Positions 9,324 through 45,826 of a stretch of 64,000 bases of DNA are shown in pieces. The notes under the pieces are model-generated. The model did no database searches. It was not told the origin of the DNA and saw nothing but the letters and a program-made list of their open reading frames with translations. The DNA comes from Escherichia coli (GTDB lineage Bacteria > Pseudomonadota > Gammaproteobacteria > Enterobacterales > Enterobacteriaceae): assembly GCF_011045215.1 (NCBI RefSeq), contig NZ_CP049201.1; one strand, 5' to 3'. Each line of letters starts with the position of its first letter. Position 1 is the first letter of the stretch. The translations under genes were made by a program, and so were the position numbers.

Positions 9324-10113
9324 ATGGTTCGATCGCCGTTTTGAGACGTTGTGTTGCTACATCAAAATAATGATCACTGGTTTCTATACCAATAAATTTG
9401 CGTCCTGCTTTCAGTGCAGCCACACCCGTTGTCCCTGACCCCATAAAAGGATCAAGGACTGTTCCACCACTATTCGCAGTCCTGACCAGCTCTGCCATAA
9501 GTTCTTCTGGCTTTCCGGTCGGGTGCATTTTCTTTGACGGGATAACCGGGAACGTCATGCAGCCGTCGAACGGACCTGAAGGCGATTTATCTAAATGGCC
9601 TTTGCTGCCCCAGACGATGTATTCACACTGATGCCGGAAATACCCCGTATGGGGTGTTCGTGACCCCCTTCCTTTGTTCCACACAATGATTCCACGCCAT
9701 GTAAAACCGCTGGCCTGAAACGCATCGGTTAAAGCTGGTAGTTGTCGCCAGTCAGTAAATACCAGGGCATAACCGCCCGGTCTGACCGCGCGGTGTGCCT
9801 GTGCCATCCATAATTGTGTCCAGTAAGCCCACGAACGGGCGTCCATGTTTTCACCCGCGAACCCATCAAAGCGGTGAAGGTTCCCGCCGTTCAGATATTT
9901 TGCATGGCTGCCCTGGTTGGTGCGTCCGGCCTTGTGTGTCGCACCCGAACTGTAAGGCGGGTCAGTGATTAAAGCATCAATGCTTTCTGGCTCAATCAGC
10001 GGCAATATTTCCAGCGCATTCCCACGACAGAGCGTGGCATTGTCAGTCTGATAAACCTTAGTGTGTTCCGGTGTATGTGCTGGTTGGTGCTGGATTGCGA
10101 TCCCCACGGTCAT
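9322..10113 (-). CDS. DNA amino-methyltransferase (N6-adenine or N4-cytosine)
   Basis: 263 aa; DPPY motif (ITDPPYSSG) precedes the AdoMet motif (FMGSGTTG), i.e. permuted motif order; AGGAG 3 nt before the ATG, lying inside the com 3' end. Confidence 0.85.
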   Translation of the reverse strand: MTVGIAIQHQPAHTPEHTKVYQTDNATLCRGNALEILPLIEPESIDALITDPPYSSGATHKAGRTNQGSHAKYLNGGNLHRFDGFAGENMDARSWAYWTQLWMAQAHRAVRPGGYALVFTDWRQLPALTDAFQASGFTWRGIIVWNKGRGSRTPHTGYFRHQCEYIVWGSKGHLDKSPSGPFDGCMTFPVIPSKKMHPTGKPEELMAELVRTANSGGTVLDPFMGSGTTGVAALKAGRKFIGIETSDHYFDVATQRLKTAIEP

Positions 10114-10255
10114 AACTCCTCATGTGTGTGGGGTGCTCGATGGCTCTCGTTATCTGGTTAAGTGTTTTGCAGCGCGGACATTTTATTTCAATGTAGTGAA
10201 ATGAGGCGCGGGCAAGTAGTTTGTTGCAATTTTTGCATCGTACATTTTGCGTCAT
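10058..10255 (-). CDS. com: Com-like zinc-finger translational regulator
   Basis: MTQNVRCKNCNKLL...IEIKCPRCKTLN resembles Mu Com as recalled (CxxC...CxxC); 3' end overlaps the methyltransferase start by about 56 nt. Confidence 0.75.
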   Translation of the reverse strand: MTQNVRCKNCNKLLARASFHYIEIKCPRCKTLNQITRAIEHPTHMRSYDRGDRNPAPTSTYTGTH

Positions 10256-10302
10256 TTGCGGCACCTCTTGTGTGGTTACTGCTGCCGATATGATAGCAAA
10301 TC

Positions 10303-10337
10303 GATCGTTTTTATCGATCGGATTTATTGCATCGATC
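10303..10337 (-). promoter_or_regulatory. cluster of three GATC sites upstream of com
   Basis: Three TCGATC motifs at 10303, 10315 and 10334 within 35 bp, 40-80 bp upstream of the com start. Confidence 0.5.
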
Positions 10338-10365
10338 TGTTATGTCTATTGCTCATGGATGGGGA

Positions 10366-10401
10366 TACCAAAAAGAAAACCCGCAGTTTTTACGCTGCGG
10401 G
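10366..10401 (-). terminator. rho-independent terminator (minus strand)
   Basis: On the minus strand cccgcag-cgtaaaaa-ctgcggg followed by ttttctttttgg. Confidence 0.6.
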
Positions 10402-10490
10402 CTTGTTGTTCATGTCTGTGAGATAGGGTGCCTTATCGACCTTACCCTGACAACCGATTGACGGGGGATTGCTCCCCCGTCGCGGTTTCC

Positions 10491-10631
10491 TTACTGCTTA
10501 CACTGTAAGAACGCCGCAAACTCCGCTCCCCAGAAGCTCATCCGTATTTCGCATAGCGAACCGTGCAGCATCCAGATGATGAGGATTGCCGTCACGCAGA
10601 ACGTGATGGCCGTAAGCGATTTTTGCGACAT
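10491..10631 (-). CDS. hypothetical 46-aa hydrophobic peptide
   Basis: MSQKSLTAITFCVTAILIIWMLHG...; AAGGAG 8 nt upstream of the ATG; below the ORF-track cutoff so read directly from sequence. Confidence 0.3.
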   Translation of the reverse strand: MSQKSLTAITFCVTAILIIWMLHGSLCEIRMSFWGAEFAAFLQCKQ

Positions 10632-36194: not shown

Positions 36195-36509
36195 TTATTC
36201 TGGGAATAAGGTCTGAATATTCTTTTTTATTTTATAAAAATTGCATTCAACTCCGCTAGGCTGATTAGCCTGGTATGTTTCCTTGATGCTAACGGTATTG
36301 AAGGGGAGGTTGTCCTCTGGCCATTCGGCCATCCAGTAGGCAAATGCTGGGTTGCGCTTTATGAGTGCTAGCCCAGCCAGAAAGGCCGCGCGTTGCGCGC
36401 GGCTGCGTTCGGAGGCTGGCAGGCTATCGAGGTAATTGCACGCCTCCTGTTCACTCTTGACGGCGGCGGGCTTCAGATAGAAACTTATCCGTCTGGTTGG
36501 TGTCGTCAT
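36195..36509 (-). CDS. ParR-like partition adaptor / DNA-binding protein
   Basis: 104 aa; N-terminus (RRISFYLKP..CNYLDSLPASERSRAQRAAFLAGLALIKRNP) resembles plasmid R1 ParR as recalled; directly downstream of the ParM-like gene. Confidence 0.65.
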   Translation of the reverse strand: MTTPTRRISFYLKPAAVKSEQEACNYLDSLPASERSRAQRAAFLAGLALIKRNPAFAYWMAEWPEDNLPFNTVSIKETYQANQPSGVECNFYKIKKNIQTLFPE

Positions 36510-36513
36510 TGGT

Positions 36514-37473
36514 TTACTCCTTGTTCATTGCGTACAGTCCATTAACCAGAGCAAACTGTGGCACCCCGTCCGCGATGAAAGTCGCATTAACTCCGCAGGC
36601 TTCGCGGATAGCGGGTGCCACAATCTCCGCCCCGCCACCGACAACCATCACCCGCCCGTAACCCGAAAAAACCGCCAGCGCGCGGATCACGCGTTGTTTC
36701 AGTGTTTCTTCCTTTTCACGAATAACCGCCATCAGGCTGGCGTAATGCGCGTCATTGTGGATGTGCTGGCGCAGCCAGGCTTCATCATGGCGATGTTCGA
36801 TAATGGTATTGGCGATGTGGTGACTGGTGCGCATACCGTTAGTGGCCATCACCGACAGTACGGCATCGGCCATCAGAGAAACGCCTACGTGTGGATCGCA
36901 AAACACCTGGCTGATACCTGCCAGTTGCCCCTGGACCTTTGCCACATCCAGCGTGGTTCCGCCCAAATCCACAATCAGCAGGGATTCAAACGGACTCATG
37001 TCAGCCAGTGCCTTAAAGCCAGCCGGAATGGATTCAGGCATAACCCGTACGTTACGGATAGTGAATGCTTCGCCGTTCTGGTACTCCACCGGGCGCATGA
37101 CGTTCGCTTTTTTGCGGTTGATGTTGGCCATGTCCGGCTGTGCGTTTGTGTCGAAATATTCGCTCAGTGGCAGGGTGACAACCACATCCACTTCCTGTGG
37201 TGTGATGCCTGATTTGACCAGCGCGTGATGAATGGCAATGACATTCACATCGCTGTACTGGTATTGCGTGTCGGTCGTCTGGACAAAGCGATCGCTGACC
37301 GGATCAAAACCATAGCGCACGCCATCAACCATGTAGTTCGCGGGCTGCGTGCCACCGAACGGCGCAGACCATTCCGACTTGAAGCTGTTCGGGCTGATGG
37401 CGTTGCGGCGTTCGCCGTTCTCAGTCCATGCCAGCTTGATGTTGGTGGAGCCGTCATCGATACAAATTTTCAT
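36514..37473 (-). CDS. ParM/StbA-like actin-type segregation ATPase
   Basis: 319 aa; MKICIDDGSTNIKLAW..ISPNSF..YQYSDVNVIAIHHAL..VMPESIPAG..LIVDLGGTTLD..VMVVGGGAE resembles R1 ParM/StbA along its length. Confidence 0.85.
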   Translation of the reverse strand: MKICIDDGSTNIKLAWTENGERRNAISPNSFKSEWSAPFGGTQPANYMVDGVRYGFDPVSDRFVQTTDTQYQYSDVNVIAIHHALVKSGITPQEVDVVVTLPLSEYFDTNAQPDMANINRKKANVMRPVEYQNGEAFTIRNVRVMPESIPAGFKALADMSPFESLLIVDLGGTTLDVAKVQGQLAGISQVFCDPHVGVSLMADAVLSVMATNGMRTSHHIANTIIEHRHDEAWLRQHIHNDAHYASLMAVIREKEETLKQRVIRALAVFSGYGRVMVVGGGAEIVAPAIREACGVNATFIADGVPQFALVNGLYAMNKE

Positions 37474-37508: not shown

Positions 37509-37615
37509 CGGGATTCTGAAATCCCGTTTTTGCCTGTTTTATGCGCGCTTCATATATCGCGGCGCGTTTTTTGCTCATTTACGGGATTTGTGAATCCCGT
37601 TTCTGTCTGTTTTTT
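37509..37615. repeat. two copies of a ~33-bp direct repeat, each with an 18-bp hairpin palindrome
   Basis: cgggattctgaaatcccg (37509..37526) and cgggatttgtgaatcccg (37582..37599), each followed by a T-rich tail; the second lies within the last codons of A. Confidence 0.5.
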
Positions 37616-40373
37616 TGTTTCCACTGGTCAGGCTACCCTGCAGCAGGTCTGCTTTGCGGCGGGCGCGTTCAGTGGTTTCACTGATTCTCTGTGCGTGCTC
37701 TGCGTCACAAATGGCGCGCAGCATGTCAGAAAGCACGGTAACGGGTGTTTTCATGGTGTTCTGGACCTGCTGAAGTGTGGATGCCAGGCGTGCGGCGGCT
37801 TCGGGGTCTGATGCCCCGAGCTGTGCCAGATAGCTGGCGACCGGGTTATGGCGGATCTCCGTGCTGCTTACGCCGTGATTACGGCTCAGGCGCTGCCAGA
37901 GCTGCGTGATTCGGCTGTCCGGGCGGGTATCCGGTTTACGTACAATTTCAAATCCCTGCGGTGAAATGATGCTGCCGTCAACGTACAGACTGCCGCCCCG
38001 TAACAGGTGCTGCATCTGCTGTTCACCGATATGCAGGCCGAGAGATTCAGCAGACTCCCGCCATTCTTTAGCGAGTAACTCGTGGTTATCAGGCAAAGGC
38101 CGCGGCTGTTTGCGGCTCTGTGTCCAGCTCTGCATTTCATCGCTGCTGTTTTTTGCCTGTTTGTCACGAAGCGAACGCATCAGCGCCCGGCGTTCGTGCC
38201 GTTTCAGTGAGCGCATCCATTCATTCACTTCAACGCCGTCAGGAAGCTGCGGCCACGGTGCTGGCCGTTCTTCCGACTGTTCTGTCCCGCTGTTGCCTGT
38301 TTCCTGTACACGGGGACAGTTATTGCCACGAGTCCAAGGGGCGGCAGGGCCGCCCTGAAGGTCAAAACCATTTTCGCGGGCGCTGTCTTCCGCTTCCGGT
38401 TTACGTCTTACCAGCTTCCAGTTATCCGGATGCGTGCACACACGGGAGGATTCCCCGATGAGTGGTGACCAGATCCCGTAAATCTGTACGCTCTGTTCGC
38501 CGTAATCGTTCAGCTCATCTGCGAGGTCGTAGGCGGTGCGAATCAGGTAGTCTTTACGTGGAACAAGTACGCCACCCTGTTTCTCAATGTAGGTGGCAAA
38601 ACATCCGGCATCAGCGGCAGCAAGAACCGCATCCATTGCGTCATCCTTCAGCCGTTGCGGGCCTTCCGGGTTGCGTGCCATCTGGCTGGCAAGGCGGCGG
38701 AGTTCACGCCACACCTGACGGGAGGGAATGCCAAAGAACTGGAACTGGCGGACCCGGTGAAGGCGCGCCCAGCCGATGGCGCGCTCCACGCTCTCGGCCA
38801 TTGATTTACCTGTTTCGTGGTCAACGCGTGGCTTGCCCGTTTTCGGGTCGATGCCATCCACGGCACGGCTGTCCAGGTTTTTCCCAATGTAGGTGGCGAT
38901 GTAGCTGGTCGGTGTGCCTTTTGAGCCGTCGACGTACTCCGCCTTAAAGCGTGGGGTAATATCATCACCCAGCTCGTGACGATCTTCCTGAATGGCAATA
39001 TCGCGGGTGTGGGACACAATGGTGTCGATTTCTTCCGGATGAGCAAAGACCATCATATGCCAGTGCACGGTGCCGTCATGGTGAGGCTCCACCGTGCGGA
39101 TGCCATACCAGCGCAGGCCGTCGCGGTTCAGTTTCTTGCGGACCGCCGCAAAAAACGTGTTAACCAGGTAATCGCTGGAGTCGCGCATGGTGGCCCCGTT
39201 CCATTTGGGATTCGGATGACCGTTCTCCGTTGTTGCGTGGTATTTTGACGGGCAGGTGACAGTCAGAAACACCGCTCTGTCGCCACGGGCTTCGGCCAGA
39301 AGTTCCAGCCCCTTCATGGTGGCCATCATTTCTGCCTTACGGTGAACCGGGTTACTTACTCCCGCGTAATACACTGTCTCGAGATCAATCGTGAACCCGT
39401 CTTCATTTTCCAGCATGAAACTTTTCAGGAAATCGCGTGTTTTCTCGCGCTGTGCGCGAAACTCGCTTAACGCGTCCTGGCTCAGATATGGTGATGTTTT
39501 TCTGGAAACCAGACAGGCGGCGCGGAGTTGTTCTTCTCTCCACTCGCAACGTAACAGCCACAGTTTGCGTTTCCACCATTCCGCACAGGTCAGGCGAAGG
39601 ATTGCGCCCGGCAGCAGCTCCGTGTCCGGTTCGTTCCTCCGGTCTTTGTCTGTCGTCAGTGCGTCATAATGTGGAGGCATGGCGTGCAGGTGTAACGCCA
39701 TGCGGGCCAGCATCTGATACGCCTTCAGCGTTACATCCATGGTCAGTTCACCATCAGTCGCGCCAAAGCCATCGCAGAGTTTTTCGAAGGTGCTGCTGAA
39801 CATCGCCGCCGTCATGGTGGCCAGCGTCTGTATCTGGTGTTTGTTGAGCTGCGGCAGGTAAAGCAAATCGTCCAGGCGTTCGCGTCCGGCAAGGGAGCGA
39901 TAACCCGGTGTCAGCCAGCGTCCGTCAGTGCGATCCAGACGTTCGAATATTTTGCGCAGGGTTCCGCGTGCATAGCGTTCCGCCTGCCAGCTCTTTTTGC
40001 CTTTCCTGCGATCGGCTTCCTGTTTTTTGCGCAGGAAGGAGAGGTGGCGAATAAGCGGATCGCGCAGATAGGACGGCAGCAGGCGCAGCGAGGCCATGGC
40101 TTCATCCACCGCGCCGCGTGCCTGTTTTCTGGCGTCTCCTGCCAGTGTGATGGTTTTGTCCTGTTTTTCCTGTGCGTCCAGGCTTTTATTAATCAGGTTG
40201 CCCAGCGGCGTGGCGGAGAACGCCGCATCAGCCATTTCCTGGCGGCGCTCGTTCTCTGCCCGGTAGGCATCCAGCCAGGAGGAAAGCGCGGATTCAGGAG
40301 CGGGGATCCCCGTTCCTTCACGCCCCACTGCGTGGCGCGGTTGTTGCCAGTCCCTGATGTACTCTGCCGTCAT
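37575..40373 (-). CDS. A: replication initiation endonuclease A (rolling-circle initiator)
   Basis: 932 aa; ..VHWHMMVF.. and ..YIATYIGKN.. (HUH and catalytic-Tyr contexts) as in P2 gpA. Confidence 0.88.
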   Translation of the reverse strand: MTAEYIRDWQQPRHAVGREGTGIPAPESALSSWLDAYRAENERRQEMADAAFSATPLGNLINKSLDAQEKQDKTITLAGDARKQARGAVDEAMASLRLLPSYLRDPLIRHLSFLRKKQEADRRKGKKSWQAERYARGTLRKIFERLDRTDGRWLTPGYRSLAGRERLDDLLYLPQLNKHQIQTLATMTAAMFSSTFEKLCDGFGATDGELTMDVTLKAYQMLARMALHLHAMPPHYDALTTDKDRRNEPDTELLPGAILRLTCAEWWKRKLWLLRCEWREEQLRAACLVSRKTSPYLSQDALSEFRAQREKTRDFLKSFMLENEDGFTIDLETVYYAGVSNPVHRKAEMMATMKGLELLAEARGDRAVFLTVTCPSKYHATTENGHPNPKWNGATMRDSSDYLVNTFFAAVRKKLNRDGLRWYGIRTVEPHHDGTVHWHMMVFAHPEEIDTIVSHTRDIAIQEDRHELGDDITPRFKAEYVDGSKGTPTSYIATYIGKNLDSRAVDGIDPKTGKPRVDHETGKSMAESVERAIGWARLHRVRQFQFFGIPSRQVWRELRRLASQMARNPEGPQRLKDDAMDAVLAAADAGCFATYIEKQGGVLVPRKDYLIRTAYDLADELNDYGEQSVQIYGIWSPLIGESSRVCTHPDNWKLVRRKPEAEDSARENGFDLQGGPAAPWTRGNNCPRVQETGNSGTEQSEERPAPWPQLPDGVEVNEWMRSLKRHERRALMRSLRDKQAKNSSDEMQSWTQSRKQPRPLPDNHELLAKEWRESAESLGLHIGEQQMQHLLRGGSLYVDGSIISPQGFEIVRKPDTRPDSRITQLWQRLSRNHGVSSTEIRHNPVASYLAQLGASDPEAAARLASTLQQVQNTMKTPVTVLSDMLRAICDAEHAQRISETTERARRKADLLQGSLTSGNKKTDRNGIHKSRK

Positions 40374-40379
40374 AGTGAT

Positions 40380-40745
40380 TTACTTCGTCATGCCATTCAG
40401 GGTGTCGCGGCAGACTGTAGCCAGCCGCTGAATTTCCAGCACGGTGTCTTCTGTGTCGGCATGGCGATGTGTGATGCGGATGCTGTCGGCAATCACATCG
40501 ACGATTGCAGAGGATGGGCGCTGGTAAATGCCAATAACGGACGGGGTGCCACCTTCAATGCGGTAAAGCCTGTAATTTCCCTCGTGGCTGTCAATCATGT
40601 AGCGACCATCAATAACAATCTTTCCGTCAGCGAGCTGCGGTACAGGCAGAGATTTCAGGTACATGTCATAACGATCACGCACGCGAGCGGCAAGATCACG
40701 TTCTGTGTTGAGCAGGTATTCAAGAAAGTCGTTGGCGAGAATCAT
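40380..40745 (-). CDS. hypothetical early protein
   Basis: 121 aa ORF immediately upstream of A on the same strand. Confidence 0.55.
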   Translation of the reverse strand: MILANDFLEYLLNTERDLAARVRDRYDMYLKSLPVPQLADGKIVIDGRYMIDSHEGNYRLYRIEGGTPSVIGIYQRPSSAIVDVIADSIRITHRHADTEDTVLEIQRLATVCRDTLNGMTK

Positions 40746-41227
40746 TGCGGCAATCCTCTTGTTACAGATGTGCGAAGGCCTCCCGCCGCAAGGTGCAGGA
40801 AAGGCCCGGAACAGGAATTAATGGAGTTTGTTTTGCTGCTGGATGAGCTGTTGAAGCTCGTGCAGATCATCCGCCAGATAGCTGAAAACAGAGGCGGAAT
40901 AAATGTTTGATAGTGCGTGGCTGCGCTCATGCCGCATATTGATGTGCATGATTTGCGCGACGCGTGATGCGCGGGAAAGTCTGCGGTTGATTTCAGTCTG
41001 GATGTGACGACGCTCCGCGATAGCGCGGTGCTGTTTGCGGTCTGCCATGGTGTGGCCTCTTTGCTCGGTGATAGAAATAACTCACCATCCAGAGTTGAGA
41101 ATCTCGGGGTGGCGAGACGTACAGGGTTCTCAACACCGGAGAGCAAAGAATCCGGCCCGACCGAAGTCGGCCCCGTACGCCCCGCCATAATTCTGACGCG
41201 AAAAAGACGTGGCAATACAGTACGCAC

Positions 41228-41248
41228 AAAAAAACCGCTTGCGCGGTT
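41228..41248 (-). terminator. rho-independent terminator (minus strand)
   Basis: On the minus strand aaccgcgcaagcggtt followed by TTTTTTT. Confidence 0.5.
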
Positions 41249-41370
41249 ATGCGCTTTGCTCTGTATCGGGTTGAGAATCCCGGCACCCGTTTTATGAGGT
41301 GCAGCGGAAATGTAACCTGACCGATTGAGGCATGGCAAGCGGTTTTTTTGTGTGTGCATGTTCTGGTTTC

Positions 41371-41670
41371 TTAGTGGTTCAGAAAAAAATCAAAAACCTT
41401 GTCAATGCGTTGCAGCAGCTCTTTCTGTATTGCTTCCGGCGTTTCCGGTTCGCCTGGCGCCTCCAACGTCGCGCAGAAATCCTCGATTTCATGACGGAGC
41501 GTCAGGCGAATGGCGAGAGGTGTGGTTTTGGCGTGCTCCAGCTGATCCAGCAGTGCCAGCACAGCAGACGGCGAGAGCATTGCGCGAAATGCCAGTAATT
41601 TTTGAGGAGTTGCCATTCGTTGCAGGGCAAATGCCAGTTCGCGTAGCTTCTGGTGGTTGGTGGTGCTCAT
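41371..41670 (-). CDS. hypothetical early protein
   Basis: 99 aa ORF in the early leftward operon. Confidence 0.5.
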   Translation of the reverse strand: MSTTNHQKLRELAFALQRMATPQKLLAFRAMLSPSAVLALLDQLEHAKTTPLAIRLTLRHEIEDFCATLEAPGEPETPEAIQKELLQRIDKVFDFFLNH

Positions 41671-41933
41671 GTTCTGGCTTCCTTCAGTAGCTGGTTAAAC
41701 ATGTGAGTAAGTGGATTGCTACACCCGAACGGCATCGGGTTTACGTGGTAAGAAGCCTGGCCTCCAGTTTTGCGAGCGCGACCACCTGTGCTGCGGTTTG
41801 TTCTGATGACTAAGCCGCCGCGCCAAAGTCGGCGTAACTCAGTATTAATAGCTGTGGTTGGGGTGTTCAATGCTGCGGCGATCTCTCCGCCGCTACACCC
41901 CGGATGAGTAGCGATGTAGTCCAGAATGGTCAT
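41667..41933 (-). CDS. hypothetical early protein, possible winged-helix DNA-binding
   Basis: 88 aa, overlapping start/stop with neighbours. Confidence 0.5.
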   Translation of the reverse strand: MTILDYIATHPGCSGGEIAAALNTPTTAINTELRRLWRGGLVIRTNRSTGGRARKTGGQASYHVNPMPFGCSNPLTHMFNQLLKEART

Positions 41934-42133
41934 CTGCGTGGCTCCTGTACCTGTCGGATAAGATTCACCCGCGCCACGTTGGTGGCGCAGAAGTAAGTGC
42001 CGTCAGTGAGGTAGATGTGGTGTGCATCCTTTTCCGAACGATGTTTGTCGATAGTGGTAATCAGGCGTTCGTCGACCTCGTATTCGCGCCCTCTGGAGGT
42101 AAAGCGAACGACGGGAAAATGCTTAATTGCCAT
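41930..42133 (-). CDS. hypothetical early protein
   Basis: 67 aa, translationally coupled within the operon. Confidence 0.45.
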   Translation of the reverse strand: MAIKHFPVVRFTSRGREYEVDERLITTIDKHRSEKDAHHIYLTDGTYFCATNVARVNLIRQVQEPRR

Positions 42134-42156
42134 TGCGCCCCCTTTGTCCAGTAACC

Positions 42157-42573
42157 CTATGCGTTAAATACGGCACGTTGCGCGTCATCAATGAATACAG
42201 CTTGAGAGCGTTCTATCAGGCGGAGATTTGTCAGAAGCTCTGACTCTTTTGTGTGGTAAGGCGTTATCAGGTATTTGCCGTGCAGTTCGGCAATAATGGT
42301 GTATTGCAGCATCATTGCTGAACCAAGAATATAAATGCAGCGTCCAATGCTGGACGGATTCATGGCTGCAACTGTTGACTGTGTTTTAAGAGTGTCGATT
42401 TCTTTGCTCTGTTCCTCAATAATTTTGGCTGCGTCAGCGGTGATTTTTGCAATGGTCAGTGCGTGAAGTGCTGCCATATGTTGGCTACGCTTCACGGCAT
42501 CTTTAGCCATTTCATCTTCCGCTTCTGATATTTTTTTTAATGTGTCGATAATGCCTTCTTCTTTTGCGTTCAT
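42157..42573 (-). CDS. hypothetical early protein
   Basis: 138 aa ORF. Confidence 0.5.
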   Translation of the reverse strand: MNAKEEGIIDTLKKISEAEDEMAKDAVKRSQHMAALHALTIAKITADAAKIIEEQSKEIDTLKTQSTVAAMNPSSIGRCIYILGSAMMLQYTIIAELHGKYLITPYHTKESELLTNLRLIERSQAVFIDDAQRAVFNA

Positions 42574-42775
42574 TTTATATCTCCGTTATTTACGTGTGCG
42601 AATACCTCCGCGAATGCGGATAGTTTTCAGGTTTTCGGGTTTAATCTGGTGTTTTGTTTAAGCTGTTATTCGTCAGTGAAAAAGCGTTCAATCTTTTTTA
42701 CTGAATGAATAATTCGCATAATCCCAATGGCGCAGGCCACCGAAATAATCAGAACAAGCCATGAGATAAATATAC

Positions 42776-43018
42776 TCATGCGATATTCCCCAGCTTATAC
42801 GGTTCAATGTGTTCCCCGCATTCTGCGGCACAGATCAGCTCGGAAAGTTCGTTAAGTGCATCCAGATCATCAGCGTAAAAAGCGACGTCATACAAACTCC
42901 GGATTGCCCTGGTCAATGAGTCACGGGCTGCACGTTCAGCATGAGCGCCTGATGCACTTAAGCGAAAATAAAATCGTTCAAGTGCTTTATTAATGAGAGT
43001 TTTATATTCTTTGCCCAT
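42776..43018 (-). CDS. hypothetical early protein
   Basis: 80 aa ORF. Confidence 0.45.
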   Translation of the reverse strand: MGKEYKTLINKALERFYFRLSASGAHAERAARDSLTRAIRSLYDVAFYADDLDALNELSELICAAECGEHIEPYKLGNIA

Positions 43019-43029
43019 CGCAACGCCCT

Positions 43030-43308
43030 TTAATCTGCTTTCTGAATTTCAGCTTCTGAATCCATACAAATAATTTCGATATAGGGTTCATCGCCATTAA
43101 CCTGACGTGCCTTTTCAGCTTCGCTAATGATTTCTCGTACGGTCTGGTACGGAAGCTCCACAGTCAGGCGCGTACCGTTCAGATAAACGTAAGTAGCTGC
43201 GTTTTTTTCTGATGGGACGACTCCATCAATAGCTGATGCGCGTAATAACAGTTCACCGCGAAAATCAATAAAACGGATAAATACACCTTGTGCATGCTCT
43301 TTGGCCAT
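43030..43308 (-). CDS. hypothetical early protein
   Basis: Listed ORF 43030..43407; plausible start at MAKEH. Confidence 0.5.
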   Translation of the reverse strand: MAKEHAQGVFIRFIDFRGELLLRASAIDGVVPSEKNAATYVYLNGTRLTVELPYQTVREIISEAEKARQVNGDEPYIEIICMDSEAEIQKAD

Positions 43309-43318
43309 AAAGCACCTG

Positions 43319-43804
43319 TTATAAATCAGCCTGTTTAATGAAATTCTGTCCGCGCAGCAGACGATCAACCGTGCGTAGCGCTTCGTACAATGTGAAATCC
43401 TGCCCAAACTGATTGTCGCCGTTGCTCAGAGCAAAAATGCGGTTTCCGGTAAATGGGTTGTGCGGGCATCTGTGAACCACGATTCCAGCTTTCTCAATCA
43501 GCCAGGTGTGTTCACCAATTTGTTTTACGGGATGGCCATCAGGTGTGGCGTGTGTTTCGCTCAAGCTGTAGCGAGAGTTGCTACGCGATGCACTGTTAGC
43601 GAAACGGTTAGCATGGTGTTCCGCCCCGTTGCGGAAGCGTTGCTGTGAAGAATTGCACTGTTGCTTCATGTCAAAAACTCCGTACCTATTTACTTCCCCG
43701 GCATAACGCCCATTTTCAAAGTAATTGCGACGAAATCCCGTGTTGTGGGGCTTGCCATTTCGCTGCTGCTTACTCATTTTTCGTGCCTCTACCCGATGAG
43801 CCAA
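43319..43804 (-). CDS. hypothetical early protein
   Basis: 161 aa basic protein; start may be the internal MSKQQ. Confidence 0.55.
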   Translation of the reverse strand: MAHRVEARKMSKQQRNGKPHNTGFRRNYFENGRYAGEVNRYGVFDMKQQCNSSQQRFRNGAEHHANRFANSASRSNSRYSLSETHATPDGHPVKQIGEHTWLIEKAGIVVHRCPHNPFTGNRIFALSNGDNQFGQDFTLYEALRTVDRLLRGQNFIKQADL

Positions 43805-43995
43805 ATAACAAACGCTGTGAGCACCGCACCAATGGTGATCGGAAAAAGACCTCTGGCATAAGCGGCGAGGTAATGAACGTTGAGAACAATAAAGCGTTCT
43901 TTTTGTCCTGTTAGCTTGCTAAGCAGATAAATCGCTATTACACCCACTTCTAGGAATACAAGGTCCAAAATGGCGCTGGTGATATTGTTGGTCAT
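43789..43995 (-). CDS. hypothetical small membrane protein
   Basis: 68 aa, two hydrophobic helices, directly downstream of cox. Confidence 0.45.
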   Translation of the reverse strand: MTNNITSAILDLVFLEVGVIAIYLLSKLTGQKERFIVLNVHYLAAYARGLFPITIGAVLTAFVIWLIG

Positions 43996-44001
43996 TTATG
44001 A

Positions 44002-44289
44002 TTAAAGCCCCAGCCACAACAACCATGCATCGCGGCGTTCTTTCGGCTGATCAAAAAACGCTTTGCGCATACCTGCGTTAAATGCTGGCAGATATACCCA
44101 GTTTTCTGATGCTCGCGTCTTCACTGAACCTGGTTTCACAAAGTCAATCGTTGGTAATTTTGCAGCGTCAATCATGGTTCTGACGGTTGATTCTTTGCGA
44201 CCAATCATCTTGGCAAATAGTTGATATGGCACCGCTTCAAGTGGATATGGTGCTACCTGAATGAACCCCTCAAGCTCTGATTCGCTCAT
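44002..44289 (-). CDS. cox: Cox-like excisionase / switch regulator
   Basis: ..VPYQLFAKMIGRKESTVRTMIDAAKLPTIDFVKPGS..ENWVYLPAFNAGMRKAFFDQPKERRDAWLLWLGL resembles P2 Cox; listed ORF 44002..44325, start taken as MSESELEG. Confidence 0.8.
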   Translation of the reverse strand: MSESELEGFIQVAPYPLEAVPYQLFAKMIGRKESTVRTMIDAAKLPTIDFVKPGSVKTRASENWVYLPAFNAGMRKAFFDQPKERRDAWLLWLGL

Positions 44290-44404: not shown

Positions 44405-44725
44405 ATGATCCATAAATCAAGCCTTGGAGAAAAACTTCGCCTGATTCGAGAGGCAGAGGGATTGTCACGTAGAGAGATGGAAGAGGTGACAGGGGTATCT
44501 CAAAACAATCTCAAAAATTATGAAATATTGGGAAGAATGATACCTGGAGAAACGCTACTCCTGATTTTGAATCATCCTCGTTTTCGGAAGTATTCGGATT
44601 GGGTGATGTTTAATCAAACTAATGCTGCGACGGGGCAGATTGCTCCGCCTCTCTCTCTTGATGGCTTCTTCGATTCGGAGGGCGATCAGGTTTCAACCGA
44701 AACAAACCAAAAATCACCCCGCTAA
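44405..44725 (+). CDS. C: immunity repressor C (HTH)
   Basis: ..LRLIREAEGLSRREMEEVTGVSQNNLKNYE.. HTH and ..TGQIAP.. resemble P2 C; listed ORF 44387..44725. Confidence 0.78.
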   Translation: MIHKSSLGEKLRLIREAEGLSRREMEEVTGVSQNNLKNYEILGRMIPGETLLLILNHPRFRKYSDWVMFNQTNAATGQIAPPLSLDGFFDSEGDQVSTETNQKSPR

Positions 44726-44821: not shown

Positions 44822-45826
44822 ATGTCAATTAAGAAGCTCGAAGATGGTCGTTATTTGCTGGACATCAGGCCGAACGGACGCAAGGGAAAGCGCGTGCGTA
44901 AGGTATTTGACAAAAAATCGGTAGCGGTGGCCACTGAACGCTACATCATGGCGAACGCTGAAAAGCGGGAATATATACAGGGCTACCGTGATCGCCGAAC
45001 GCTAAATGATTTGCTTGAGTTGTGGTGGATGTATCACGGTCAACACAGGCGTAAGGCGGAAGAAGACCGAAAACAACTGCGCAACATAATCAATGAGCTT
45101 GGCGCTGATATGCAGGCTGTGGATCTTGATAAGCTGAAAATTATCGCGTGGCGTTCTCAAAAGATAGCTGATGGATTGAAACCGTCATCTGCTAACAGAT
45201 ACATGAATCGGTTATCCGGAATGTTTACCGTACTGAAGAAAATAGGCCTCTGGGATGCAGAACATCCGGTAAGGGGAATTTCTATTCTTTATGTATCTCC
45301 ACGAGAAATGGCTTTCCTGTCCCAGAAGGAAGTGGCGCTATTGCTCGATACACTGGAGGGCGATTACTGGCGTGTTGCGCTTTTGTGTTTAAGCACGGGG
45401 GCGCGCTGGAGTGAAGCTTGTAAGCTTCGTGGTGAACAGATAGTTCATAACCGTGTAACGTTTCTTGAAACCAAAAATGGCCGAAAGAGAACAGTGCCAA
45501 TTTCGCAGGCAGTTTGTGAGGCGATCAAAACCAGAGAAACAGGCGGCTTGTTTGAGGTGAAGTACCGGGAATTCTGCTTGGCGCTGAAAAGAGTTAAGCC
45601 CGATTTGCCAAAAGGCCAGGCTGCACATGTGCTGCGGCATACGTTCGCCAGCCATTTTGTGATGAACGGAGGAAACATTATTGCGCTTCAGAAGATTCTT
45701 GGCCACGCAACCATTCAGCAAACAATGGCATATGCACATTTTGCACCGGATTACCTGCAGGATGCGGTGGCCCTTAATCCGCTGAAAGGTGGCGTGAGTG
45801 TCCACGCAGTGTCCACGGGGGATTAA
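44822..45826 (+). CDS. int: tyrosine integrase (P2 Int family)
   Basis: MSIKKLEDGRYLLDIRPNGRKGKRVRK.. N-terminus and C-terminal ..HVLRHTFASHFVMNGGNIIALQKILGHATIQQTMAYAHFAPDYLQDA.. resemble P2 Int. Confidence 0.93.
   Translation: MSIKKLEDGRYLLDIRPNGRKGKRVRKVFDKKSVAVATERYIMANAEKREYIQGYRDRRTLNDLLELWWMYHGQHRRKAEEDRKQLRNIINELGADMQAVDLDKLKIIAWRSQKIADGLKPSSANRYMNRLSGMFTVLKKIGLWDAEHPVRGISILYVSPREMAFLSQKEVALLLDTLEGDYWRVALLCLSTGARWSEACKLRGEQIVHNRVTFLETKNGRKRTVPISQAVCEAIKTRETGGLFEVKYREFCLALKRVKPDLPKGQAAHVLRHTFASHFVMNGGNIIALQKILGHATIQQTMAYAHFAPDYLQDAVALNPLKGGVSVHAVSTGD

Follow-up and report, generated by a model that had tools for sequence, protein, structure and literature searches.

Nine small genes directly downstream of cox in the early operon of a P88-type Escherichia coli prophage

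Within a 64,000-nucleotide stretch of the Escherichia coli contig NZ_CP049201.1 (RefSeq assembly GCF_011045215.1), hereafter the window, we analysed a block of small minus-strand genes at positions 41371 to 43995 that lies directly downstream of the cox gene of a prophage. With high confidence, this interval is the stretch of protein-coding genes nearest to cox and to the promoter in the early lytic operon of a P88-type P2-like prophage (genus Xuanwuvirus, family Peduoviridae). Beyond this placement, we lean slightly towards a fuller reading, in which the block is an early accessory set that would be transcribed from the early promoter Pe and directed at the host. That the products are small host-directed accessory factors is a more tentative proposal, drawn from analogy with better-characterised phages. 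The block is already catalogued through DUF4761, DUF4754, PHROG families and RefSeq; it is ordinary, and nothing indicates a new kind of system.

The placement is carried by gene order. The first gene of the early operon, cox (44002..44289, minus strand; 95 residues), matched Pfam Phage_Cox at E 1.7e-22 and P2 Cox at 6.9e-30 and is named 'Cox family DNA-binding protein' in RefSeq. It is divergent from a C-type helix-turn-helix (HTH) repressor (44405..44725) and an integrase (44822..45826), both on the strand opposite to cox. The same-strand run of genes that begins at cox ends in a GPA-family rolling-circle nickase, the replication endonuclease A, whose 932-residue open reading frame (ORF; 37575..40373, minus strand) matched Pfam Phage_GPA at E 4.7e-131, P2 A at 1.4e-84 and 186 A at 2.1e-93. 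The resulting order, int-C and divergently cox-...-A, matches that of P88, phiSM and P2. RefSeq annotation of the surrounding 37 kb describes a complete P2-type prophage inserted between flk and pdxB, in which integrase and C-type repressor are followed by the divergent operon from cox to A, by ParM, by genes for capsid, tail and lysis, and by ogr. Furthermore, a 4.1-kb stretch around the block was 100% identical to the chromosome of E. coli KSC9 (NZ_CP018323.1) and was matched in 1457 of 5426 complete E. coli genomes; in 780 of these, the match spanned 80% or more of the stretch. The closest phages were Citrobacter phage Shae_phiSM (phiSM), Xuanwuvirus P884B11 and Escherichia phage P88, which are Peduoviridae of the genus Xuanwuvirus wherever the record classifies them.

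The initial annotation had listed eight ORFs on the minus strand directly downstream of cox, and all eight were recovered at their coordinates: 43789..43995 (68 residues), 43319..43804 (161), 43030..43407 (125), 42776..43018 (80), 42157..42573 (138), 41930..42133 (67), 41667..41933 (88) and 41371..41670 (99), numbered o1 to o8 below. Each matched a PHROG family (E 1e-28 to 1e-81) and each is annotated in NZ_CP018323.1. The count of eight had to be raised to nine, a 37-residue ORF with a single transmembrane segment (o4b, 42666..42779) having been missed. Two gene models also required correction. The 161- and 125-residue forms had been drawn from the longest TTG starts and were over-extended. 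The second of them begins at ATG 43308 and encodes 92 residues, a start on which the PHROG profile, RefSeq and the relatives agree. For the first, the start is either ATG 43669 (116 residues, as in RefSeq) or ATG 43777 (152 residues); the latter is the start used in phiSM, is preceded by a conserved GAGG ribosome-binding site, lies in a frame that is open in 9 of 9 alleles, and adds an extension with a ratio of nonsynonymous to synonymous polymorphism (pN/pS) of 0.18.

Since these starts were over-extended, the two large overlaps in the first models were artefacts. The reported overlap of start and stop codons was genuine at three junctions, o4/o4b, o6/o7 and o7/o8, each formed by a 4-nt ATGA. 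The other spacers measure 6-23 nt, with the sole exception of 92 nt before o5. No promoter-like or terminator-like site was predicted on the coding strand between 41371 and 43995. The block, which had been described as lying between cox and A, does not extend to A: an isrK-like RNA, a C4 antisense RNA, an epsilon-like gene of 76 residues and a gene of 121 residues intervene.

Comparison with related loci separated a rigid core from interchangeable genes. We retrieved 85 loci through DUF4754 (o4) and 80 through DUF4761 (o2), about 160 in all, and computed pN/pS as a pooled value for the window against alleles from these loci. The o2 core, o3, o4, o6 and o7 were under strong purifying selection (pN/pS 0.09-0.17), whereas o1, o4b, o5 and o8 evolved faster (0.38-0.75); every gene remained below 1. 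The series DUF4761-o3-DUF4754-o4b was contiguous in all related loci and never interrupted, and o6 always abutted o7 where o7 was present, which makes a second rigid pair. Variation was confined to three slots. The slot between cox and DUF4761 spans 200-1750 bp and holds o1 in loci with this cox type; the slot between o4b and o6 was empty in 89 loci, held an o5-type gene in 58 and an unrelated 105-residue gene in 11; and the slot between o8 and o9, the epsilon-like gene, measures about 300 bp or carries about 1.1 kb of added cargo. Moreover, the core genes were kept alongside heterologous cox and immunity types and alongside A alleles with 31-99% identity.

Among the core genes, o2 (43319..43777 from ATG 43777, with ATG 43669 as the alternative start) is a clear DUF4761 member (Pfam PF15958, E 7.7e-68; 225.7 bits, above the gathering cut-off of 27). 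Its conserved core is the C-terminal ~70 residues (pN/pS 0.12), for which the AlphaFold2 model gives five strands and one helix, a beta-meander plus helix, at a predicted local distance difference test (pLDDT) score of 70.9. The acidic o3 (43030..43308, 92 residues; pN/pS 0.15) matched phrog_3800 at E 4.1e-58 over the 92-residue form only, which has the RefSeq start; it is specific to Xuanwuvirus, tblastn having found it in only 14 phage records, all Xuanwuvirus-type. The 80-residue o4 (42776..43018) belongs to DUF4754 (Pfam PF15946, E 2.8e-54; 181.7 bits against a cut-off of 27, above the gathering threshold), has the lowest pN/pS of the block (0.09) and is, judging from its sequence, probably helical. 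This family is rare, with about six diverged representatives among 1.84 billion proteins. The peptide o4b (42666..42779; RefSeq WP_000021654.1), whose ATG overlaps the o4 stop, is hydrophobic over residues 1-28, was present in 83 of 85 loci at a pN/pS of 0.38, and has a P88 orthologue, gp07, annotated 'membrane protein'.

The second pair comprises o6 (41930..42133; phrog_3459, E 1.1e-45; pN/pS 0.14), a basic protein of 67 residues present in 82 of 85 loci, whose family is confined to Escherichia-type prophages, and o7 (41667..41933), an 88-residue MarR-type winged-helix protein. The latter, which starts within the o6 stop, matched Pfam MarR_2 (PF12802) at E 1.8e-7 and 31.6 bits, above the cut-off of 27, over the HTH part only, and phrog_1687 ('MarR family') at 2e-31; its pN/pS was 0.17. 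It has no typical MarR dimerisation region and is predicted to be a DNA-binding winged-helix protein. Two allelic types of o7 occur (about 77% and about 97% identical), and some relatives have no detectable homologue. One PHROG profile, phrog_19053, contains o6-like and o7-like segments within a single longer protein. The idea that o3 and o6 are paralogues with an FlbD-like beta pattern was considered and found unsupported (BLASTP E 0.24; hhalign probability 0.5%, with shallow profiles).

The remaining genes are accessory. The first, o1 (43789..43995; phrog_14475, E 1.2e-28; pN/pS 0.44), had been called a two-helix membrane protein, and hydrophobic segments at residues 4-30 and 46-68 bear this out; of 85 loci, 24 contained it, for the most part loci that share this cox type, and its alleles are 59-97% identical. 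The occupant of the swap slot, o5 (42157..42573; 138 residues), matched a PHROG family of unknown function and showed the highest pN/pS (0.75). A coiled-coil protein, it combines a helical hairpin at the N-terminus with a small beta domain at the C-terminus; its allelic types are only about 55% identical, and it sits in a low-GC (guanine-plus-cytosine) stretch (0.42) behind the only long intergenic gap of the block. The o5 and o6 families are narrow, occurring almost only in Escherichia and Citrobacter. The last gene, o8 (41371..41670; 99 residues; phrog_4144, E 4.3e-59; pN/pS 0.45), starts within the o7 stop and bears a weak likeness to Pfam Ead_Ea22 (PF13935; 17.2 bits, E 0.0081, below the 27-bit cut-off). 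Its orthologues in P88 and phiSM are annotated ead/Ea22-like, and it is variable or absent in relatives. With the lambdoid Ead/Ea22 proteins it has a short N-terminal motif region in common; it is much shorter than they are, and the function of Ead/Ea22 is itself poorly defined. Along the operon, GC content was 0.42-0.45 from DUF4761 to o5 (about 42250-43250) against 0.52-0.59 from o6 to A, which suggests that the operon is mosaic and derives from two sources.

The block is shared, gene by gene, with the closest phages. P88 (NC_026014) carries orthologues as gp04-gp10, in the same order after cox, with identities of 90% for DUF4761, 80% for o3, 100% for DUF4754, 97% for the 37-residue peptide, 84% for o6, 76% for the winged-helix protein and 83% for the Ead/Ea22-like protein; it has neither o1 nor o5, and it has a membrane protein and an SPFH-like lipoprotein between its Ead/Ea22-like and derepression genes. 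phiSM carries all nine genes, including genes 040-045 in the same order after cox, with o1 97% and o5 57% identical. Neither phage has a function assigned to any of them. As observations on the slot behind o8, 42 related loci, P88 among them (locus L002, 3617-4647), hold a cargo of about 1.1 kb between the Ead/Ea22-like gene and the isrK-like RNA; it encodes a 67-residue membrane protein and a 276-residue lipoprotein annotated as an SPFH-domain protein or a serine protease, is absent from the window, and is a candidate moron or exclusion module.

The description of the block as same-strand early-operon genes after cox without characterised function was upheld across Pfam, NCBIfam, PHROG and PDB sequence searches and the literature. 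Pfam, NCBIfam and PHROG scans assigned no function to any block gene, the NCBIfam matches being weak and at chance level, and o1, o3, o5 and o6 matched solely PHROGs of unknown function. Searches of PDB sequences with o2, o3, o4, o5 and o7 returned nothing under E 0.1, and two AlphaFold models gave no informative fold match. Deep homologue searches of the o5, o6 and DUF4754 families showed all three to be narrow and centred on Escherichia and Citrobacter, and yielded no informative names or domain fusions. In the comparison with P4 proteins, o9 matched (epsilon) and no block ORF did. DUF4761, DUF4754 and the RefSeq protein accessions were not mentioned in the searchable literature, and the titles and abstracts of papers on P88 and Xuanwuvirus give no sign that these genes are treated there.

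Position offers more guidance. The P2 early operon, cox-orf78-B-orf80-orf81-orf82-orf83-A, has the same architecture, with divergent C and int, cox first, small ORFs and the A nickase. Its Cox and A proteins are homologous to those of the window, whereas the nine block ORFs are not homologous to orf78, B or orf80-83; unlike P2, the block has no DksA-like zinc finger or DUF2732 gene, and where P2 has a terminator after B, the window has the isrK/C4 cassette instead. Phage 186, with the operon apl-cII-fil-dhr-(CP79..CP84)-A, likewise places small early genes between excisionase or repressor and A. There, fil is annotated as a cell division inhibitor and dhr as an inhibitor of host DNA replication, and the small ORFs downstream of dhr are annotated 'not essential'. 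By phmmer, no block ORF resembles 186 CII, Fil, Dhr or CP79-84, and none matched Pfam Phage_186_Fil (PF10893), in a search whose positive control, SEN5 gp39, matched Fil at 4e-18; any functional equivalence with 186 would be an analogy only.

Distant DUF4761 homologues bear on the comparison with 186. In Salmonella phage SEN5, in Enterobacter phage phiT5282H and in prophages of Kosakonia, Erwinia, Enterobacter and Citrobacter, proteins of 66-75 residues with 34-39% identity are encoded behind an excisionase gene, where the early operon begins or close to that point; Serratia has one as well. A scan of genome contigs with DUF4761 returned only eight loci. DUF4761 is followed by Fil-like and Dhr-like genes in SEN5 (locus L090, 2977-4208), phiT5282H, Kosakonia, Enterobacter and Citrobacter; the Fil-like gene of SEN5, gp39, is the Pfam Phage_186_Fil member just mentioned. 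In Serratia sp. PL17 (locus L179, 4669-5443), a DUF4754-like gene stands directly after DUF4761 (hhalign 96.4%). DUF4761 is thus a widespread cox-proximal gene of Peduoviridae. The suggestion that this position carries host-takeover genes therefore has precedent, both in 186 (fil, dhr) and in SEN5-type phages, where DUF4761 stands beside a Phage_186_Fil gene and a Dhr-like gene.

From the analogy with P2 and 186 and the absence of internal signals, we infer that the block would be transcribed from Pe together with cox, would be silent while the C repressor is bound, and would supply the first set of products after derepression or infection. Expression would precede that of the replicase A, which lies beyond the isrK/C4 antisense-RNA checkpoint. 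The products would most likely be small protein- or DNA-binding factors acting on constant host targets, in a host takeover of the kind known from Fil, which blocks division, and Dhr, which blocks host replication, and probably neither replication enzymes nor proven anti-defence factors. We favour a host-directed role because the block occupies the Fil/Dhr position, because other phages show DUF4761 in synteny with those two genes, because the core does not change along with the variable modules for immunity and replicase in the phage, and because the 186 genes downstream of dhr are annotated as not essential.

Several points weigh against this host-directed account. No gene of the block has a detectable relative of known function, so that every functional statement rests on position and analogy, and transcription from Pe and silence in the lysogen are themselves carried over from P2 and 186. 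Strong purifying selection would equally fit an essential role internal to the phage, in regulation or replication. The MarR-type winged-helix protein o7 points to DNA binding, not to inhibition of a host protein. Finally, the related loci were fetched through DUF4754 and DUF4761, and the constancy of these two genes is partly a selection effect.

A more specific version appears possible, if rather doubtful: the DUF4761-(o3)-DUF4754-transmembrane-peptide module would be a hitherto unrecognised host-takeover cassette that blocks division or replication and, separately, at least one of o5 and o1 would be a new counter-defence or exclusion factor. In other Peduoviridae this module stands beside or in place of Fil and Dhr. 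The P88-type prophages that would carry such a factor have matches in about one in four complete E. coli genomes.

The initial annotation had also raised an anti-restriction or anti-defence role, and nothing we found links these genes to either. That one or more of the variable genes (o1, o5, o8, perhaps the 37-residue peptide) act in counter-defence, anti-restriction or superinfection exclusion is unlikely as an explanation of the block, and is possible mainly for o5 and o1, which are fast-evolving, swappable and of low GC. The turnover of the o5 slot, which is empty or filled by an o5-type or unrelated gene, fits such cargo, as do the divergence of o5 alleles, its high pN/pS and its low-GC setting behind the sole long spacer; o1, in turn, tracks immunity type and also evolves quickly. 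By analogy with P2 and 186, the products would be among the earliest made after infection or derepression. However, elevated pN/pS equally describes relaxed constraint on dispensable genes, and the invariant core, with pN/pS of about 0.1, is unlike arms-race cargo, only o1, o5 and o8 being fast or swapped. No sequence or structural match to a known anti-defence or defence protein emerged: Pfam, NCBIfam, PADLOC and PHROG scans, none of them a dedicated anti-defence library, returned no known anti-defence protein, and the matches of block ORFs in PADLOC-DB were at chance level (best E 0.008).

It is rather improbable that the core includes proteins equivalent in function, though not homologous, to P2 B or to another accessory factor of replication, such as a loader of the DnaB helicase that works with the A nickase. 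The core does lie upstream of A in the same operon, is strongly conserved, and occupies exactly the region in which P2 has the essential B. BLASTP also aligned DUF4754 with the C-terminus of P2 B (PF26815) at E 3e-4 over 45 residues, but profile-profile comparison of a 7-member DUF4754 alignment with a 14-member B alignment gave an hhalign probability of 0.4%, and homology was rejected; phmmer of all ORFs likewise found no match to B, orf78 or orf80-83, in agreement with the earlier statement that no P2 B homologue is present. In addition, the core stays unchanged beside very different A alleles. Phage 186 is not known to have a B analogue and relies on host initiation functions.

We also consider it improbable that the main task of the block is regulation, whether of the choice between lysis and lysogeny or of transcription at later stages, with DUF4761 in place of 186 CII and o7, possibly with o6, controlling the isrK/C4/epsilon module or the late genes. 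Between the excisionase gene and fil, DUF4761 does hold the position of cII in 186; o7 exceeds the MarR_2 threshold; and phrog_19053 joins o6-like and o7-like segments. Yet the DUF4761 model, a beta-meander with one helix, has no HTH, the protein shows no similarity to CII, no binding sites came to light, and the core does not follow the cox/C immunity type, which would be unexpected for components of the switch. That some ORFs are chance reading frames, as the mechanically extended 161- and 125-residue models might have suggested, is very improbable given strong PHROG or Pfam matches, RefSeq annotation, conservation in relatives and pN/pS below 1 for all ORFs. The host-directed early block remains the reading we prefer. 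P88-type prophages are very common, yet the first genes after their cox have no known function; with a rigid core, swappable genes and true boundaries defined, a vague list of hypothetical genes becomes short and testable.

A more promising lead lies immediately downstream. The 3' boundary of the block is an isrK-like RNA (41228..41302, minus strand; Rfam RF01394 at 63.1 bits, where the gathering score is 50), the equivalent of P4 seqA, with a promoter-like site at 41338..41309 and a terminator of hairpin plus U7 at 41248..41233, both on the minus strand. Next comes a C4 antisense RNA of the P1 C4 / P4 CI RNA type (41105..41192, minus strand; Rfam RF01695, 78.5 bits against 45), which is also preceded by a promoter-like site. 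IsrK and C4 have been equated with P4 seqA and CI RNA (Barquist et al., PMC3632133). Behind C4 lies o9 (40818..41048, minus strand), a P4-epsilon-like derepression (antirepressor) protein of 76 residues (Pfam PF25738, E 1.8e-8; phmmer against P4 epsilon, 6.6e-8), present in 63 of 85 related loci and annotated 'derepression protein' in its P88 orthologue. P4 epsilon is the annotated 'helper derepression protein' of a satellite; here, a P2-like phage itself encodes such a protein behind a C4 RNA. No LexA box was present upstream of o9 when the sequence was inspected by eye.

For two loop elements of C4, complementary sites exist in the isrK-like RNA as well as in the o9 leader (41049-41104); the second of the leader sites overlaps the Shine-Dalgarno sequence of o9. 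Among 40 distinct alleles, these three-way pairings covaried: 5 'a' and 12 'b' specificities occurred in 16 combinations, 94.7-95.2% of cells were paired as against 27-58% when partners were slid, and compensatory changes were seen in 10 of 16 pairs. The covariation score of 0.60 compared with at most 0.16 in slid controls and was reached by 0 of 500 shuffles. Located in a P2-like phage, the cassette (41040-41345, minus strand) is thus an RNA immunity cassette of the P1 immI / P4 type, and the antirepressor o9 is probably under its control, as possibly are o10 and A. A second, RNA-based layer of immunity with many specificities in a P2-like phage is thereby implied.

By analogy with the P1 immI system, the upstream decoy sites would be borne on the transcript that runs from Pe through the nine-gene block. 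Separately, we noted a 15-nt perfect long-range inverted repeat, AAAAAAACCGCTTGC just past the o8 stop (41332-41346, minus strand) and GCAAGCGGTTTTTTT (41226-41240, minus strand), the latter comprising the isrK terminator from the middle of its hairpin onwards, with the 3' half and the U-tract. The upstream arm would be present only in transcripts that come from the nine-gene block, so that it could serve as an anti-terminator. In most other alleles, the repeat contains a single mismatch (GCCAGCGG).

The last gene before A is o10 (40380..40745, minus strand; 121 residues), which ends 6 nt upstream of A and matched phrog_3237 at E 3e-55 and, weakly, DUF5405 (E 0.074); to this family belong Orf81 and Orf83, which hold the position of o10 in P2. 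It was present only with A alleles 95-99% identical to that of the window, with one exception at 88%.

Further features of the prophage were observed beyond the early block. The A protein, at 932 residues as against 940-946 in relatives, exceeds P2 A by about 170 residues, and RefSeq marks a frameshift in its gene (37550-40373, minus strand). RefSeq frameshift flags also occur on the tail sheath, gpD-like and Mom-like methyltransferase genes of the prophage, and reflect either prophage decay or indel errors in the assembly. Directly downstream of A, this P2-like prophage carries a plasmid-type partition module (36195-37473, minus strand), made up of a gene for a ParM actin-like segregation protein and a second, small gene named 'partitioning/stability'. 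At the far end of the prophage, adjoining ogr, lie a Hok/Gef toxin gene, a Com-family regulator and the frameshifted Mom-like DNA methyltransferase gene, at about 9333-10614 as mapped from the RefSeq annotation.

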